The notes beneath the pieces were generated by a model. It was not told the origin of the DNA. It ran no database searches and saw only the letters and a program-made list of their open reading frames with translations. Below, piece by piece: positions 7,600 through 53,083 of a DNA stretch of 64,000 nucleotides (the first letter of the stretch is position 1; each line of letters begins with the position of its first letter). This DNA is from Pirellulales bacterium (GTDB lineage: Bacteria; Planctomycetota; Planctomycetia; Pirellulales; JBGAPH01), in NCBI GenBank assembly GCA_046349955.1, contig JAXMBI010000009.1, positions 147,443 to 211,442 on the forward strand. Reading direction: 5' to 3'. The position numbers and the translations under genes are program-made.

Positions 7600-8805
7600 T
7601 TACTTGGCCGAAGCCACTTCGGCGGCGGGCTGGGCCGAGAAGTCGAAGCTCAGCTCGGTGGTCTCACCGGCCTTGAGCGACACCTTCTCGTCCTTCACCT
7701 GGGTCCGACCGTCCTGCGTGTATTCGACACGCACGTCATAGTCGGCCCAAGCGGCGCCGGCGGGCAGCTTGGTGGTGGTGAACTCACGCACCGTGCCGGT
7801 GGCCTTCATCTCGTGTCCGGCCAGGGTCACCTTGGCGTCGGCCGGAACGTTCAGCACCAACTTGGTCGGCGCTTCGTCCTTGGCCACGGCGGTCTCGCCC
7901 GCCAGGTCGAACGACAGGTCGGCCCGCTGGCCTCCCTGCAGGCGAACGGTCTTCACCTGCTCGATCGTCTGACCGTCGCGGACCAGGGTCGCCTTGACCT
8001 CGTACTTGTAGCGGAAGCCCGGCTCCAGACCGCGCGACACGAACTGGCGATCGTTGCCGGTGCTGCGGGTGGGCAGGCCGTTCACCACGACCTGGGCCCC
8101 AGCGGGCACCTGCACGTTGAGCAGAGCGCTGCGCTCGAGCTCATCGGCCGGAAGATAGAGCGACGCGCCGGCCGGCGGGGTCGTCGTGCCGGGCGCCGTC
8201 GGGTTGAGCAAGTCATCGGTGGCGGGCGCAGTCGGAGCAGGCGTGCCGCCTTCGACGGGCGCCGCCGGCGCTTCGGCCGGCCTCATCGTCGAGGGAGCGC
8301 TTTCGACGTAGTCGGGCTCAGCCACGGTCCAGCCGCCGCTCGAGCCACCCGAGGATCCGCCGGACGACCCGCCGCTCGAGCCGTAGCTCCAGCCGCCGGA
8401 CGAGCCGCCGCTCGAACCCCAGCCGCCGCTCGAACCGCCGGAGCTGCCGCTCCAGCGCCAAGCCCGGCGCTGATGATGACGCCAGCCCCAGCCGCCGGAC
8501 GAGCCACCGCTCGAACCCCAACCGGAGTAGCCGCCGCTCGAACCCCAGCCGCCGCTCGAGCCGTAGTAGCCCCAGCCGCCGGACGAGCCACCGCTCGAGC
8601 CCCAGCTGCCGTAGCCGCCGCTCGAACCGCCGCTGGAACCCCAGCCGCCGCCGCTCGAGCCGCCCCAGCTGCCGCCGTAGCCGCCGCTCGAACCCCAGCT
8701 CCCGTGATGGCGCCAGCCGGCTTCGGCCACGCCCGTCAGGCCCCAGCCGCTCGTGGCGACAGCCGCGGCGGCGATGGCAAACATTTTCAGACTACGCACG
8801 AACAT
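7600..8805 (-). CDS. Secreted Gly/Ser/Trp-rich protein with two C-terminal TIGR03000 (planctomycete) domains
   Basis: Signal peptide MFVRSLKMFAIAAAAVATSG, then ~130 aa of SSGG(W/Y)G repeats. Two ~75-aa units fit the TIGR03000 pattern (LLNVQVPAGAQVVVNGLPTRSTGNDRQFVSRGLEPGFRYKYEVKATLVRDGQ... and LVLNVPADAKVTLAGHEMKATGTVREF...). ATG 8805 is preceded by GGGGGAG; the track start at 8823 is GTG. Confidence 0.8.
   Translation of the reverse strand: MFVRSLKMFAIAAAAVATSGWGLTGVAEAGWRHHGSWGSSGGYGGSWGGSSGGGWGSSGGSSGGYGSWGSSGGSSGGWGYYGSSGGWGSSGGYSGWGSSGGSSGGWGWRHHQRRAWRWSGSSGGSSGGWGSSGGSSGGWSYGSSGGSSGGSSGGSSGGWTVAEPDYVESAPSTMRPAEAPAAPVEGGTPAPTAPATDDLLNPTAPGTTTPPAGASLYLPADELERSALLNVQVPAGAQVVVNGLPTRSTGNDRQFVSRGLEPGFRYKYEVKATLVRDGQTIEQVKTVRLQGGQRADLSFDLAGETAVAKDEAPTKLVLNVPADAKVTLAGHEMKATGTVREFTTTKLPAGAAWADYDVRVEYTQDGRTQVKDEKVSLKAGETTELSFDFSAQPAAEVASAK
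8329..8718 (-). repeat. Coding low-complexity tandem repeat encoding (S/G)SGG(W/Y)G
   Basis: The plus strand shows reiterated ccgccgctcga(g/a)cc and ccagccgccggacgagcc units of 12-24 nt. WRHH motifs occur at the start and in the middle of the block. Confidence 0.8.
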
Positions 8806-24506: not shown

Positions 24507-25889
24507 ATGCACGGCTTCGCGCTGCCGGTTCGCTGTTTCCTGGCCTGCAGCCTGACCTTGGGCGCTGCCCTGCTGCTCGCGGCCGATGCGCCGCCGGCTG
24601 AGCTGCGTTTGGCCCGCTTCGACATCGACTGCACACCTCCCGTCGGCTCGCTCATGGCCTATGACCCGGTCAAGGCCCAGGGCGAGGTCGGCCTGCGGGC
24701 CCGCGGCGTGGTGCTGCTGGGCGCCGGCCCGCCGATCGTGCTCTGCGCCGTCGACTGGATCGGCATCGCGAACGAAGCGCACGACGCCTTCCGCCAGGCG
24801 TTGGCCGAAGCCGCCGGCACTTCGCCCGATCGCGTGGCAGTGCATGCTCTCCATCAGCACGACGCGCCCGATAGCGATTTTTCGGCCGAGCAGATTCTGA
24901 AGGAGGCTGGCGTCGATCCGGGGCACTTCGCCAGCGACTTCCAGCGGCAGAAGCTCGCGGAGTTAGCGGGGGCCGTGAAGGCTTCGTTGAGCAGTGCACA
25001 GCCCCTGACTCACGTCGGCTGGGGCGCGGCCAACGCCGAAAAGGTCGCTTCGAACCGGCGGGTCATGGGGCCCGATGGCCAGGTCAAGGCGGTCCGCTAC
25101 ACCGCCTGCGCCGACGCGGCGCTGCGGGCCGAGCCCGAAGGGACGATCGACCCGCGGGTGTCGCTCGTGAGCTTCTGGAATGGGGATCGCCCGCTGGCGG
25201 TCCTCAGCTACTACGCCACGCACCCTCAGAGCTACTACCGCACCGGCATTCCCAGCCCCGACTTTCCGGGCCTCGCGCGCCTCTTCCGCCAGCTCGCGCT
25301 GCCGGAGGCGCTGCACGTTCATTTCACGGGCGCGGGGGGCAACATCGGCGCCGGCAAATACAACGATGGCTCGCCCGGCAACCGCGTGGTGCTGGCGGAA
25401 CGGCTGGCCGACGCGATGCGCCGTGCCTGGGAAGCGACGGAGCGGACGCCCATCACGGCGGCCGATGTCGCTTGGCGCGTCGTGCCGGTGCAGCTCCCCC
25501 CCTCGCGGCATTTGAACGAGGCGGAACTGCTTACGCAGATCAAGGCGGGCCAGATGCCGCAGGCCGCAACGGCCGCCACGCGGCTGGCCTGGCTGCGGCG
25601 CTGCCAATCGGGGCACGCCATCGAACTCACGCGCCTGAGCTTGGGACCAGTCAGTGTACTGCACCTGCCGGGTGAACTGTTCGTGGAGTATCAGCTTGCG
25701 GCTCAGAAGCTGCGGCCCGATCGCCACGTGGCGGTGGCGGCCTACGGCGACTACGGCCCCTGGTATATTGGCACCGAGGTCGCCTACGGCCAGGGGGGCT
25801 ACGAAACGAGCCCCACCGCGTCGAACGTCGCGCCGAATGTCGAGCCGGTGCTCACCGCGGGCATCGGAGCGCTCTTGGCCGACGACTAG
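24507..25889 (+). CDS. Secreted hypothetical protein, possibly neutral-ceramidase-like hydrolase fold
   Basis: 460 aa with a signal peptide ([18 protein letters not shown]). The layout is reminiscent of ceramidase_alk N-terminal domains (ARGVVL...[29 protein letters not shown]). The function call is weak. It sits immediately upstream of DUF1501 paralogue 2. Confidence 0.6.
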
Positions 25890-25905
25890 CCCGAAGGAGC
25901 TTGCC

Positions 25906-27408
25906 ATGCTGCGAATCCTGAGCTCGCCCCGCCGGCTGTGCAGCGGTCTGACCCGCCGCGAACTGCTGCGCGTTGGCGGACTGGGACTAGCCGGCCTTGG
26001 CCTGGGCGATCTGCTGGCCTTGCAAGACCGGGCGGCCGCCGAGCCGCACGAGCGGCCGAAGTCGTTTGGCGCGGCGAAGTCGGTGATCCTCTGCCATCTC
26101 TATGGCGCGCCCAGTCAGCTCGAGACCTTCGATCCCAAACCGCAGGCCCCGGTCGAAATCCGCGGCGAACTAGGCGTGATCGGCTCCAAGCTGCCGGGCG
26201 TGCAGGTGGGCGAGCTGCTGCCGAAGACGGCGCAAACGCTCGATCGCTGCACGATCCTGCGCTCGCTCACCCATCCCTATCCGATCCACGGCGTGGCCTA
26301 TGCCCTCACGGGCATCCCCACGATGGACGTGGCGATGGAGCTGAGCCCGCGCGACGCGCGGCACTGGCCGTTCTTCGGCTCGGTGGTCGACTACTTGACG
26401 GCGCAAGACGCGGCGGCGGCAAAGCCCGGGCGCACGCCCGTGAACATGGCGCTGCCGTTTCCCATGAGCACGCGCCGCGTGGGCGAGGTGCCCCGCGCGG
26501 GGCCGTATGCCGCGTTCTTGGGCGCGCAGTACGACCCGATCTGGACCGAGTTCGTCGGCCAGGGGACGCGTGGCATTCGCAAAACGCTGACCACGCGCGT
26601 CTTCGACGAGCCCGATCCCTACATGGGGACGACTCCCGAGAGCCACTTTGCCCTGCCGAGCGTGTCCTCGCTGCCGGGCGAGCTCACCCTCGATCGGCTC
26701 GCGCAGCGCCGCAGCCTGCTCGACCAACTTGGGGCCGGGCGGCGCGAACTCGACGCGAGCCTGGCCGGCCGCGAACTGAATCGTTACCAAACGATGGCCT
26801 ACGATCTGCTCCACTCGAGCAAGTTGGCTGAGGCCCTCGACGTGCGCCGCGAGCCGGTCGCCACGCGCGAACTCTACGGCCACACGCTGTTTGGCCAAAG
26901 CTGCCTGGCGGCGCGCCGCCTGGTCGAGGCAGGCAGCCGCGTGGTCAGCGTGTTCTGGGACGAATACGGCCTGGCGGGGAGCGGCTGGGACACGCACTGG
27001 AATCACTATCAACGGATGCGCGAGGAGCTGTGCCCTGGGTTCGACCAGGCTTGGTACGGCCTGATCAACGATCTCGATCGGCGCGGGCTGCTCGATGAGA
27101 CGCTCGTGGTTTGCACGAGCGAGCACGGCCGCACCCCGCGGCTCGACAACTCCCCGGGCGGCGGCCGCGATCACTGGTCGCGCGTCTACAGTTCGATCCT
27201 GGCCGGCGGGGGCATTGCCCGCGGGCGCGTGGTCGGCGCGAGCGACCGGCAAGCGGGGGACGTGGCCGACCGGCCGATCAGCCCCAAGGATTTGCTGGCC
27301 ACGATGTACCACCTGCTGGGCATCAACCACCACACGCTGCTCCACGACCGGCTGGGCCGCCCGCTGCCGCTGGTCGAAGGACAGGTGATCCACGAGGCGC
27401 TGGGCTAA
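25906..27408 (+). CDS. DUF1501 domain protein, paralogue 2
   Basis: ATG 25906 lies 6 nt after GAAGGAG. Tat-like leader LTRRELLRVGGLGLAGLG, then LCHLYGAPSQLETFDPKP, SEHGRTP, GRDHWSRVYSSILAGGGIARG and DLLATMYHLLGINHHTLLHDRLGRPLPL. Confidence 0.9.
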   Translation: MLRILSSPRRLCSGLTRRELLRVGGLGLAGLGLGDLLALQDRAAAEPHERPKSFGAAKSVILCHLYGAPSQLETFDPKPQAPVEIRGELGVIGSKLPGVQVGELLPKTAQTLDRCTILRSLTHPYPIHGVAYALTGIPTMDVAMELSPRDARHWPFFGSVVDYLTAQDAAAAKPGRTPVNMALPFPMSTRRVGEVPRAGPYAAFLGAQYDPIWTEFVGQGTRGIRKTLTTRVFDEPDPYMGTTPESHFALPSVSSLPGELTLDRLAQRRSLLDQLGAGRRELDASLAGRELNRYQTMAYDLLHSSKLAEALDVRREPVATRELYGHTLFGQSCLAARRLVEAGSRVVSVFWDEYGLAGSGWDTHWNHYQRMREELCPGFDQAWYGLINDLDRRGLLDETLVVCTSEHGRTPRLDNSPGGGRDHWSRVYSSILAGGGIARGRVVGASDRQAGDVADRPISPKDLLATMYHLLGINHHTLLHDRLGRPLPLVEGQVIHEALG

Positions 27409-27411
27409 CTG

Positions 27412-27725
27412 CTTGCGCCGTTTGGTCGGCCGGCTGACGCCAGGCCGCTCGCCGGGCGGTGGGTTGGCCCAATCACGTGGTCCTGTTTTCAACGGTTCCG
27501 GCGAGCGGCCAGCGTTAGCTGGCTGACTTTGACCGGCTGGGCTCACTTGCGCCGTATCGGCCGGCTTACGCCAGGCCGCTCGCCGAGGCGGTGGATTGGC
27601 CAAGCCGACCGTAGTCCTGTTTTCCAACCGTTCTGGCGAGCGGCCAGCGTTAGCTGGCTGACCAAGCCGGGTTGGATTGCTTGCGCTATATGGTCGGCCG
27701 GCTTACGCCGGGCCGCTCGCCGGGG
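27412..27725 (+). repeat. Tandem repeat, 134-bp unit x 2.3, each unit a long imperfect hairpin
   Basis: Units start at 27412, 27546 and 27680 (CTTGCGCC/T...). Each full unit has arm GTCGGCCGGCT(G/T)ACGCCAGGCCGCTCGCC and, about 46 nt later, GGCGAGCGGCCAGCGTTAGCTGGCTGAC. The third unit is truncated after the left arm. Confidence 0.9.
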
Positions 27726-27733
27726 ACGCTGCG

Positions 27734-27739
27734 TATAAT
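27734..27739 (+). promoter_or_regulatory. Perfect TATAAT box ~60 nt upstream of pqiA-like start
   Basis: gcgTATAATtggg sits exactly where repeat unit 3 diverges. No convincing -35 element is present. Pattern match only. Confidence 0.25.
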
Positions 27740-27798: not shown

Positions 27799-28413
27799 AT
27801 GGCCTCCACTCCTTCCGCGCTGCGCGGTTGCCCCTGCTGCGGGCTGGTTCAGCAATTGCCGCCGCCTCGCTCCGGCTGGCGGGCCGCATGTCACCGTTGC
27901 CACGCGCCGTTTCCCACCGCGCGCAAGGGGACTCGTGGCCGGCTGCGCGCGGTCGCCGCGGCGCTTGCGGCCTTGATTCTCTACGTCCCGGCCATCACCT
28001 TGCCCATGTTGCGGCTCGAGCGGCTGGGCCAGGTTCGCGAAGACAACCTGCTGGGCGGCATCGTCAGTTTGCTGTCGGCCGGCCACTGGTTCGTGGGACT
28101 GGTCGTGCTCGTGTTCTCGGTGATCGTGCCGCCCCTCAAGCTGATCACCCTGCTCGTGCTCGGCCTCGGCGGGGCCGGCTTTGCCACGCGGCATCAGGCG
28201 GCGGCCTACCGGCTCGTGGAGCTCGTCGGCCGTTGGGGCATGCTCGACGTCATGCTCGTGGCCGTGCTCGTGGCCTTCGTCAAGCTCGGCAACCTGGCCG
28301 AAATCCAGGCCGGGCCGGGCCTGCTGGCCTTTGCGCTGTGCGTGTTGGCCAGTTTGATCGCCAGCGTTTGCTTCGATCCCCATGACCTTTGGCGCGAACC
28401 CTGCGATGGCTGA
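27799..28413 (+). CDS. pqiA: Paraquat-inducible protein A (PqiA) family membrane protein, single module
   Basis: Starts MASTPSALRGCPCCGLVQQLPPPRSGWRAACHRCHAPF (CxxC...CxxC zinc-ribbon-like), followed by 4 TM helices and the LVELVGRWGMLDVMLVAVLVAFVKLG motif. Confidence 0.8.
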   Translation: MASTPSALRGCPCCGLVQQLPPPRSGWRAACHRCHAPFPTARKGTRGRLRAVAAALAALILYVPAITLPMLRLERLGQVREDNLLGGIVSLLSAGHWFVGLVVLVFSVIVPPLKLITLLVLGLGGAGFATRHQAAAYRLVELVGRWGMLDVMLVAVLVAFVKLGNLAEIQAGPGLLAFALCVLASLIASVCFDPHDLWREPCDG

Positions 28414-47846: not shown

Positions 47847-48688
47847 AACTCGAAATCGCCACCCCAGAACTCGATGTGAACGCCGCGCGGCGGCCCGAGC
47901 GGATCAGGCTGTTCGGGCTCGAGATCGACCGCGTGACGATGCCCGCGGCGGTCGAGCGCGTGCTCGCTTGGGCGGCTGCTCGCGATGGCGTTTGCCGGTT
48001 CGTGGTGACGCCGAACTTGGACCACGCCGTGATGTTCCAGGAGCATGCCGGCCTCCGCGCGGCCTATGCCGACGCCGCGCTCGTGTTGGCCGATGGCTGG
48101 CCGCTCGTGGCCGCTTCGCGCTGGCTCGGCAAGCCACTGCCGGAGCGTGTGGCCGGCAGCGACCTGGTGCCGGCGCTGTTTTCGGCCGCCTCTCAACAGC
48201 GGCAGCCGCTGCGGGTTTTTCTGCTGGGGGCAGCGCCTGGTGTGGCCGAGCGGGCGGCGGCCAACATAGAGCGCCGCTGGCCGGCCGTACACGTCTGCGG
48301 TTGCTATAGTCCGCCGCTAGGATTCGAGCGCGACGCCGTGGCCAACGCGGAGGTCCTCCGGCAGGTGGCCAACACCCAGCCCGACGTGCTGGTGGTTGGC
48401 CTAGGGGCGCCGAAGCAGGAACTTTGGCTGCACGAACATCGCAGCGAGCTGGGCGTGCCGGTGGCCCTGGGCGTTGGCGCGACGATCGACTTCCTAGCGG
48501 GCGAACGCCGCCGTGCGCCGCGCTGGCTCCAGCGGCTCCATCTCGAGTGGCTGCATCGGCTGGCCAGCGAGCCCCGCCGCCTGGCCGCCCGTTACGCCCG
48601 CGACGCCTGCGCGTTCCCCCAGCTCCTCTGGCGCGAATCGCGCGCTACGGCGAGCGGGGGACGATTCACGGCGAGCGGGGGACGATAG
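47840..48688 (+). CDS. WecB/TagA/CpsF-family glycosyltransferase
   Basis: VVTPNLDHAVM, ADGWPLV, VFLLGAAPGVAERAA, PDVLVVGLGAPKQELW and APRWLQRLHLEWLHRL. It overlaps the GT4 gene by 7 nt. The last ~14 codons are encoded by a repeat element. Confidence 0.85.
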   Translation: MLELEIATPELDVNAARRPERIRLFGLEIDRVTMPAAVERVLAWAAARDGVCRFVVTPNLDHAVMFQEHAGLRAAYADAALVLADGWPLVAASRWLGKPLPERVAGSDLVPALFSAASQQRQPLRVFLLGAAPGVAERAAANIERRWPAVHVCGCYSPPLGFERDAVANAEVLRQVANTQPDVLVVGLGAPKQELWLHEHRSELGVPVALGVGATIDFLAGERRRAPRWLQRLHLEWLHRLASEPRRLAARYARDACAFPQLLWRESRATASGGRFTASGGR

Positions 48689-48695
48689 TCCCCCG
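48649..48695 (+). repeat. Tandem GGCGAGCGGGGGACGAT(T/A) element ending in a 7-bp stem-loop that spans the wecG-like stop codon
   Basis: GGCGAGCGGGGGACGATTCAC is followed by GGCGAGCGGGGGACGATAGTCCCCC. The stem pairs 48677-48683 with 48688-48694, with loop GATA. The inverted partner lies at 51111-51134. Confidence 0.85.
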
Positions 48696-48825
48696 AGTCC
48701 TCCCCGGCGACACGGCTCGACACCGCGCCAAGCAGCGCGGCTGATTCTGCGGAGCTTAGCCCCGAAGGGGCGGTCGAAGGTAGCCTGGGGCGAAAGCCCC
48801 AGGTCGCCGACAGCGCTCGCGCTCA

Positions 48826-50970: not shown

Positions 50971-51110
50971 ACCACCTCAAACCTCGGGGAAACCCTGTCG
51001 ATCCCATGTCAACAAAACGCCGCAAACGACCCTTGAAGACCCAGAGAACATCTGGCTACCCTCGTCCGCCCCTTCGGGGCTACTCGACCGACAATCACAA
51101 GCGTGCAGCA

Positions 51111-51134
51111 GGGGACTTTCGTCCCCCGCTCGCC
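51111..51134 (-). repeat. Inverted copy of the GGCGAGCGGGGGACGAAAGTCCCC stem-loop element, 2 nt after the acs stop
   Basis: The plus strand reads GGGGACTTTCGTCCCCCGCTCGCC. On the minus strand this is GGCGAGCGGGGGAC-GAAA-GTCCCC, matching 48670-48694. Confidence 0.85.
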
Positions 51135-51136
51135 GC

Positions 51137-53083
<1,947 letters not shown>

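Follow-up and report, generated by a model that had tools for sequence, protein, structure and literature searches.

A 134-bp tandem array in a Pirellulales genome is probably a locally expanded cluster of hairpin units from a Planctomycetota-wide repeat family

In a 64-kb stretch of DNA from a Pirellulales bacterium (hereafter the window, meaning the whole stretch), the 390-nt spacer between a DUF1501 gene and pqiA carries a tandem array with a period of about 134 bp. We conclude, with a probability of roughly 0.7, that this array is a cluster similar to a bacterial interspersed mosaic element (BIME), composed of five units resembling repetitive extragenic palindromic (REP) sequences, drawn from a Planctomycetota-wide family and expanded by local tandem duplication. 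Tandem Repeats Finder placed the array at 27425–27724 (period 135, 2.2 copies, 83% matches, score 397) and ranked it by far as the top-scoring repeat of the window; its extent, with DUF1501 and pqiA on either side, is given here as 27412–27724. The anchor CTTGCGC recurs at 27412, 27546 and 27680, and its spacing stays at exactly 134 nt because internal indels cancel out. The initial annotation, which had described a 134-bp period with unit starts at these three positions, thus agrees with the anchor spacing, and its placement of the array is borne out by the DUF1501 stop codon and the pqiA ATG (Table 1).

The basic module is a directional arm of ~28 nt, consisting of a tail (GGCGAGC), a 7-nt stem strand, a GTNA loop, the complementary 7 nt and G-R-T; we treat the arm as the module because, in the family described below, 97 arms stand outside tail-outward pairs and because direct and composite arrays occur. 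Five such units follow one another in alternating orientation (− + − + −), representing two subtypes and separated by two alternating linkers, and all five were recovered by a profile built from other genomes (nhmmer, E = 5e-8 to 9e-4). The R units are of the GGCCAGC/GCTGGCT subtype, and the L units of a bulged 25-nt subtype that is also found in loci L017, L070, L084 and L112. Linker A is present twice and linker B twice plus one partial copy. Read with the tails facing outward, R1 pairs with L2 and R2 with L3, at start-to-start distances that differ by at most 1 nt from the 61-nt class of the family, and both spans align as whole doublets to loci L093, L016 and L022 (BLAST). The hairpins of the initial annotation joined L1 to R1 and L2 to R2, which are tail-inward neighbours and the opposite of the family norm. 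Its impression that a third unit breaks off at a TATAAT box was a product of that register: in the tail-outward register the array ends in a complete pair, 12 nt before TATAAT.

Sequence divergence within the array is uneven. Between periods the units are 93–100% identical, against 73% for linker A and 58% for linker B, so the units are constrained or undergo homogenisation, and the linkers are drifting apart. Similarity to the repeat begins at ~27399, within the last DUF1501 codons, such that the last ~10 nt of the gene lie inside the period. There, GCTGGGCTAAC-TG-CTTGCGCCGT at 27399–27421 matches GCTGGGCTCAC-TTGCGCCGT (written jointly, GCTGGGCTCACTTGCGCCGT) at 27536–27555, and this repetition of the DUF1501 3′ end shows that the cluster grew by local tandem duplication. 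The duplicated ~134-bp block runs from the gene end through an L unit and linker A to an R unit and is repeated 2.3 times; L1 begins 16 nt past the DUF1501 stop codon. A first search with the arm sequences returned no other copy in the window, and two singlets of another stem subtype (GGGGGAC/GTCCCCY, shared by both) were found later. The plus-strand singlet is directly preceded by a 21-nt partial duplication (48649–48669), and the minus-strand singlet begins 2 nt past the stop of a minus-strand gene (51137–53083).

The family to which these units belong was delineated by a scan of one genome per species (GTDB) with the pattern GGCGAGCGGCC N1-2 GCGT N AGC Y GGC, matching both arms on opposite strands, for which ~1 chance match was expected. 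Among the matches listed were at least 114 loci in ~48 assemblies, labelled as Gemmataceae (including Fimbriiglobus, Urbifossiella and Frigoriglobus), Pirellulaceae/Pirellulales, Planctomycetaceae, Thermoguttaceae and other Planctomycetota. The family statistics below rest on these loci, which were fetched as 8-kb pieces around the repeats (~960 kb) and do not include the window's own genome (megablast of the window). Single long-read metagenome-assembled genomes (MAGs) contributed at least 10–13 loci each, and two further matches, in a Eubacteriales MAG and in Nonomuraea, lay inside coding sequence and were chance-like. Six IMG/VR contigs matched the same pattern, one of them a Mu-like prophage region (L116, 870–2700, with Gp36 and portal genes) in which several hetero-doublets, pairs of units with different stems, lie between phage genes; the repeats therefore colonise prophage DNA as well. 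Querying PLSDB plasmids with the canonical doublet gave no match, and a metagenome scan for the window-specific linker A likewise gave none.

The hairpin character of the unit is evident from its covariation, which the initial annotation had proposed as a check together with a search for other copies; both were found. When occurrences of the tail plus GTNA were collected whose stem is unlike the search pattern (n = 49), 30 had 7/7 stem pairs and seven had 6/7, whereas among N7-GTNA-N7 controls without the tail only 0.2% had 7/7. The stems not imposed by the pattern include GGGGGGC/GCCCCCY, GGGAGGC/GCCTCCC, GGGATGC/GCATCCC, GGGGGAC/GTCCCCC, GGTCGGT/ACCGACT and GTGGGGC/GCCCCAY, alongside the perfect, GC-rich GGCCGGC/GCCGGCY stem of the main subfamily. 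Across 94 distinct units, 92.6% of cells were paired (73.4% in shuffles), all seven stem pairs showed double changes, and the covariation score of 0.491, compared with 0.185, was reached by 0 of 500 shuffles and collapsed when the partner column was slid. Of the 94, 44 had a G:U pair, read on the tail strand, at the stem base.

Neighbouring arms in the fetched loci are arranged almost exclusively in one way, with 48 cases of "+ then −" (tail-outward) and one of "− then +". We tallied 49 tail-outward inverted pairs, two of them in the window. They form long and often perfect palindromes, 5′-GGCGAGCGGCCGGCGTNAGCCGGCTGRT ... AYCAGCCGGCTNACGCCGGCCGCTCGCC-3′, with unrelated flanks, and fall into start-to-start spacing classes of 39–40, 61 and 74 nt, of which the 61- and 74-nt classes have a conserved interior that occurs both ways round. 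Of the 97 arms that belong to no such pair, 72 lack any partner up to 130 nt away. Some doublets join units with different, non-complementary stems (L084, L116 and L087), and hence conservation concerns the unit and the tail-outward pairing of units rather than a long helix between arms. Cluster expansion is recurrent in the family: L067 (1–310) holds seven units at ~38 nt, L084 (1–350) three copies of a hetero-doublet plus linker with a period of 122 that end upstream of a gene start, and L120 (240–670) at least seven copies with a period of 60.

The BIME-2 elements of Escherichia coli consist of tandem Y and Z REPs in alternating orientation, joined by two alternating linkers. The present array resembles them in its two alternating subtypes, its two linkers and its intergenic position just downstream of a gene, and it resembles E. 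coli BIMEs generally in that the units are better conserved than the linkers. Units that alternate (− + − + −) with recurring linkers are the hallmark of a BIME, and similar composite arrays occur in L084. Unlike BIME-2, the array has another unit sequence, lacks the GTAG tag and spans only 2.3 periods, and its linker includes a copy of the 3′ end of the upstream gene, which demonstrates a purely local duplication. The family likewise has the general properties of REPs and of REPINs (paired REPs), namely many dispersed, mostly extragenic short palindromes that also form inverted doublets at preferred spacing. As in the REPINs of Bertels and Rainey 2011 (PMC3116915), inverted doublets occur at discrete spacing (39–40, 61 and 74 nt) together with singlets, and they are extragenic and without target-site duplication. 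They differ from REPINs in that conservation of tail and loop extends over several families and orders instead of being confined to one lineage, and in that hetero-doublets exist whose arms cannot pair over their full length. The tail, GGCGAGC, also differs from the GT[AG]G and CGTC tags (PMC3733652), and the unit is therefore not a canonical GTAG/CGTC REP.

A closer counterpart comes from the small "class 3" single-tyrosine HUH enzymes (HUH-Y1, TnpA_Y1) described by Quentin et al. 2018 (PMC6006769), which are found principally in Planctomycetes, Acidobacteria and Proteobacteria. According to that study, the hairpins bordering class 3 genes are atypical: they occur in up to ~600 copies per genome (Solibacter usitatus) and consist of a 5′ foot, (CnGA)-GC, a 7–8-nt stem and a GTNA loop; its Table S1 lists, among others, CACGAGCCGGAAGCGTGAGCGACGGGT for Planctomyces limnophilus, CCGAGCCGCGACCGTAAGGGAGCGGA for Legionella and CAGAGCCGCGACCGTTAGGGAGCG for Solibacter. 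The unit described here shares with them a ..GAGC tail directly 5′ of a 7–8-nt stem and a GTNA loop, and the two systems also share the phylum and a high copy number. Judged from sequence on architecture, copy number and phylum, it would qualify as a class 3 REP-like hairpin. A sub-variant, GGCGAGCCGGGAGCGTNAGCGACCGGAG, with nine occurrences in eight loci, is identical to P. limnophilus CACGAGCCGGAAGCGTGAGCGACGGGT at 22 of 27 positions. There are also differences. Published class 3 hairpins have a 2 × 2 internal mismatch, whereas the stem of the main subfamily is perfect and GC-rich; the foot is GCGA (tail GGCGAGC) as opposed to the published CnGA-GC, although P. limnophilus itself has ACGA; and tail-outward doublets and tandem clusters, both seen here, are not described in PMC6006769. 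A literature search by sequence string and by repeat class and phylum turned up no account of the unit outside the class 3 table of that study.

These likenesses suggest a mechanism in which a class 3 HUH-Y1 enzyme similar to the REP-associated tyrosine transposases (RAYTs) would recognise the units as hairpins in single-stranded DNA and would spread or maintain them. Where several units share an orientation, slippage or unequal recombination could then expand a cluster. If the expression of DUF1501 or pqiA is affected at all, for example through a 3′ hairpin barrier or by insulation from the pqiA promoter, this would be a side effect. For recognition and spread by a class 3 enzyme, which we propose by analogy with the published hairpins, the balance tips slightly in favour. 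The lack of target-site duplications at 47 doublets fits HUH-Y1 chemistry.

Several observations weigh against this account. Motif searches detected no HUH-Y1 or RAYT open reading frame (ORF) in the window or in the fetched loci: a first search for an HUH-Y motif gave one chance-like match (L074), and the class 3 TnpA_Y1 motif (NHVH ... YV[VI]xEQ) gave none. Among the neighbouring proteins of the fetched loci, no transposase family recurs beside the elements. The recurrent neighbours all belong to common planctomycete families (Pkinase, ABC-F, LepA, histidine kinase, DUF7133, DUF1501, PQQ, DUF1559 and PSCyt2/PSD1), and the ORFs between or beside units encode a probable glyoxalase-like protein (from its translation only), PIN, Mu Gp36 and portal proteins. 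The tail GCGAGC fits the published "CnGA" foot only loosely, consensus positions 1–24 are partly fixed by the search pattern, and the gene calls are heuristic, taken from the frame indicated by GC content at third codon positions (GC3). Finally, REPs tend to be lineage-specific; a near-identical unit shared by several families and orders is unusual among them and could point to a host function instead. That the unit is an ancient phylum-wide element with a putative host role, its clusters tuning expression between adjacent genes, seems to us a rather improbable reading. Candidate roles would be a U-tract-independent signal for transcript 3′ ends, a signal coupled to translation termination, or service as the substrate of a domesticated, vertically inherited class 3 HUH-Y1 enzyme. 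We keep this reading open because tail and loop are near-identical across Gemmataceae, Pirellulaceae, Planctomycetaceae and Thermoguttaceae and because units show a strong tendency to start no more than ~25 nt from stop codons.

The genomic position of the family was examined at 125 sites, 106 of which lie outside called genes. By spacer type, 42 sites are in tandem, 15 in convergent and 16 in divergent spacers, and 19 are inside called ORFs. Where a gene 3′ end is adjacent, 43 of 76 sites start at most 26 nt from the stop codon, and in tandem spacers the median distance is 26 nt to the stop and no less than 41 nt to the next potential start codon; this is a mild asymmetry only, because the spacers are short. 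Singlet orientation relative to local GC skew gave no signal (34:26, p = 0.44). One intragenic case is a perfect 63-nt doublet that lies in frame in a DUF1501 ORF (L104, 1272–1334), in a variable loop, with a net gain of nine amino acids. This ORF is 61% identical to the DUF1501 of the window and its C-terminus looks frameshifted, possibly through a long-read assembly error; a second doublet lies downstream at 111–173.

The alternative favoured by the initial annotation was an RNA-level element of this locus, in which the hairpins would be transcribed with DUF1501 and serve as a 3′ untranslated region (UTR) stabiliser, a terminator or attenuator, or a small RNA (sRNA) precursor, with selection acting on the plus-strand RNA. 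Folding of both strands, which that annotation had also proposed, speaks for it at first sight. The long hairpins it had drawn are real: 27425–27527 folds at −71.4 kcal/mol on the plus strand (z = −6.9, 0 of 200 dinucleotide shuffles as good) and at −58.0 on the minus strand, and 27556–27662 at −67.2 kcal/mol (z = −7.7, no dinucleotide shuffle as good) and −59.6, respectively. Since arm orientation alternates, hairpins of a second set can form just as well (27500–27584, −54.9 kcal/mol; 27635–27721, −66.6 kcal/mol, z = −8.5), and the minimum-energy fold of the whole spacer takes one hairpin per register. The plus strand folds better by 5–14 kcal/mol in both registers, DNA energy parameters point in the same direction (−38.2 vs −31.2), and the minus-strand fold opens exactly three positions, all G:U on the plus strand, as had been predicted from their strand asymmetry. 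Further points in favour are the frequent start of units 0–26 nt past stop codons (L1 and the minus-strand singlet of the window among them), a loop of the GNNA type and the stem-base G:U on the tail strand in nearly half of the distinct units. REPs of E. coli also stabilise upstream mRNA. However, the three G:U positions result from the subtype difference between R and L and were copied by the duplication; they are one inherited event of three sites, with a chance of ~1 in 8, and not independent evidence. Family-wide tests give no support for a strand-specific RNA. Singlets with a sole nearby gene end (at most 60 nt away) are co-oriented with it in nine cases and anti-oriented in nine. About half of the 49 doublets are perfect; the transition-type mismatches in the set are G:T in 26 and A:C in 21 instances on the strand as read, and relative to the adjacent gene 12 wobbles lie on the mRNA strand and nine antisense. 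U-tracts are absent, T-rich tracts flanking 3 of 94 doublet ends compared with 44 of 2280 random positions, and a scan of the array for Rho-independent terminators called none. Sites in divergent spacers, inside ORFs (including L104) and in prophage DNA are also hard to reconcile with this alternative, as is the absence of the array from a related pqiA locus (L121, see below). Rfam, at gathering and at permissive thresholds, returned only sub-threshold microRNA-like matches at the repeat in the window and in four canonical loci, as expected for any long hairpin. A dedicated RNA element is further disfavoured by the arms being copies of a 28-nt unit dispersed over Planctomycetota genomes, by the inverted pair of the family being the other register (48:1), by the doublets whose two stems are not complementary, and by the match of the unit to the published single-strand hairpins beside class 3 HUH-Y1 genes. 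We consider such an element unlikely; a secondary RNA-level effect, for example a putative 3′ hairpin barrier on the DUF1501 transcript, is possible.

Two readings at the DNA level fare worse. The ~28-nt arms could be the terminal inverted repeats, and the loops the internal sequence, of a miniature inverted-repeat transposable element (MITE) derived from a DDE-type insertion sequence. The sharp boundaries of the doublets, their unrelated flanks and the conserved internal sequence, in both orientations, of the 61- and 74-nt classes fit this idea, but target-site duplications were absent in 31 of 47 doublets and at most 3 nt long, which argues against a DDE-type MITE. Unpaired arms moreover outnumber doublets (97 vs 49), with most of them lacking any partner nearby, every arm is a covarying hairpin of its own with conserved tail and loop, some doublets join different stems, and no transposase was found near the repeats in the fetched loci; we regard a MITE as very improbable. 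Equally remote in our judgement is that the units are double-stranded DNA sites for a conserved host protein (nucleoid-associated, gyrase-like or a regulator), clustered to insulate DUF1501 from pqiA. Conservation of tail and loop across several planctomycete families and the intergenic location would be expected of such sites, and E. coli BIMEs bind integration host factor (IHF), gyrase and Pol I. Yet the stems covary while staying complementary, the mark of a folded single strand rather than of a duplex motif, the related locus L121 lacks the cluster, and we know of no candidate protein. Other repeat classes were set aside on their architecture. An array of clustered regularly interspaced short palindromic repeats (CRISPR) would have direct repeats of 28–37 nt and unique spacers, whereas here successive units face opposite ways and the "spacers" are repeats as well, in line with the initial view that the array is not CRISPR-like. 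Integron attC sites and coding repeats are excluded by orientation, the repeated "spacers", dispersed single sites and intergenic position, so that the array had also been judged correctly as not protein-coding.

A 460-aa ORF without a Pfam hit (24507–25889, plus strand) overlaps the start of the extended DUF1501 ORF, and the true DUF1501 start is probably near 25990–26070. The perfect TATAAT noted initially upstream of pqiA is present and may be its −10 box, although a consensus scan around it found no full sigma-70 match and no −35 element. The PqiA of the window had no exact match on record in public assemblies. In the closest pqiA locus available (L121, from metagenomes), whose PqiA is 79% identical, another gene lies upstream, the spacer measures ~170 nt, no units precede pqiA, and TATAAT stands at 2918–2923, 47 nt before the pqiA ATG. 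The shared TATAAT points to a separate pqiA promoter downstream of the array, and the absence of units from L121 shows that pqiA regulation does not include the cluster as a conserved component.

Table 1. Coordinates of the repeat units, linkers, inverted pairs and neighbouring features in the window.
Feature	Position	Strand	Description
DUF1501 gene	25654–27408	+	Start uncertain, Pfam domain from ~26074; stop TAA at 27406–27408
Unit L1, bulged subtype	27425–27453	−	GGCGAGC GGCCTGGC GTCA GCCGGCC GAC; nhmmer E = 9e-4
Linker A, copy 1	27454–27499		"Loop" of the hairpin in the initial annotation; 73% identity to copy 2
Unit R1	27500–27527	+	GGCGAGC GGCCAGC GTTA GCTGGCT GAC; E = 7e-8
Linker B, copy 1	27528–27555		Right part duplicates the 3′ end of DUF1501 and what follows it (27399–27421)
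Unit L2	27556–27584	−	GGCGAGC GGCCTGGC GTAA GCCGGCC GAT; E = 7e-6
Linker A, copy 2	27585–27634
Unit R2	27635–27662	+	Identical to R1; E = 5e-8
Linker B, copy 2	27663–27692
Unit L3	27693–27721	−	Final array element; GGCGAGC GGCCCGGC GTAA GCCGGCC GAC; E = 7e-5
Tail-outward inverted pair R1–L2	27500–27584		Start-to-start 60 nt
Tail-outward inverted pair R2–L3	27635–27721		Start-to-start 62 nt
TATAAT	27734–27739	+	59 nt upstream of the pqiA ATG; outside the repeat
pqiA (PF04403)	27799–28413	+	ATG at 27799
Singlet	48670–48697	+	GGCGAGC GGGGGAC GATA GTCCCCC GAG
Singlet	51107–51134	−	GGCGAGC GGGGGAC GAAA GTCCCCT

Read as a BIME-like cluster, the array is no longer a candidate for a new structured RNA and is explained as a locally duplicated repeat cluster. 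The unit is compact and searchable (GGCGAGC, 7-bp stem, GTNA, G-R-T) and marks many Planctomycetota genomes, which it would tie, by its likeness to published hairpins, to the little-studied class 3 HUH-Y1 enzymes as a concrete candidate substrate. It also provides a marker with which populations could be analysed in REPIN style, in a phylum whose repeats of this kind are barely described, and it gives rise to in-frame gene insertions (L104) and to tandem arrays that are relevant to assembly.

Other features were recorded in the window. Rfam identified an Acido-Lenti-1 RNA (RF01687) at 48758–48803 on the minus strand, scoring 52.7 bits where the gathering score is 37. Of its two hairpins, the second carries a UUCG loop; the RNA has no relation to the repeat family. 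A hairpin similar to that of Acido-Lenti-1, GCCCCTTCGGGGC, recurs at ~51068–51083. Dense, overlapping tandem repeats of 12 to 84 nt, similar to AGCCGCCGCTCG, occupy 8331–8694, probably a region of repetitive coding sequence or of low complexity.

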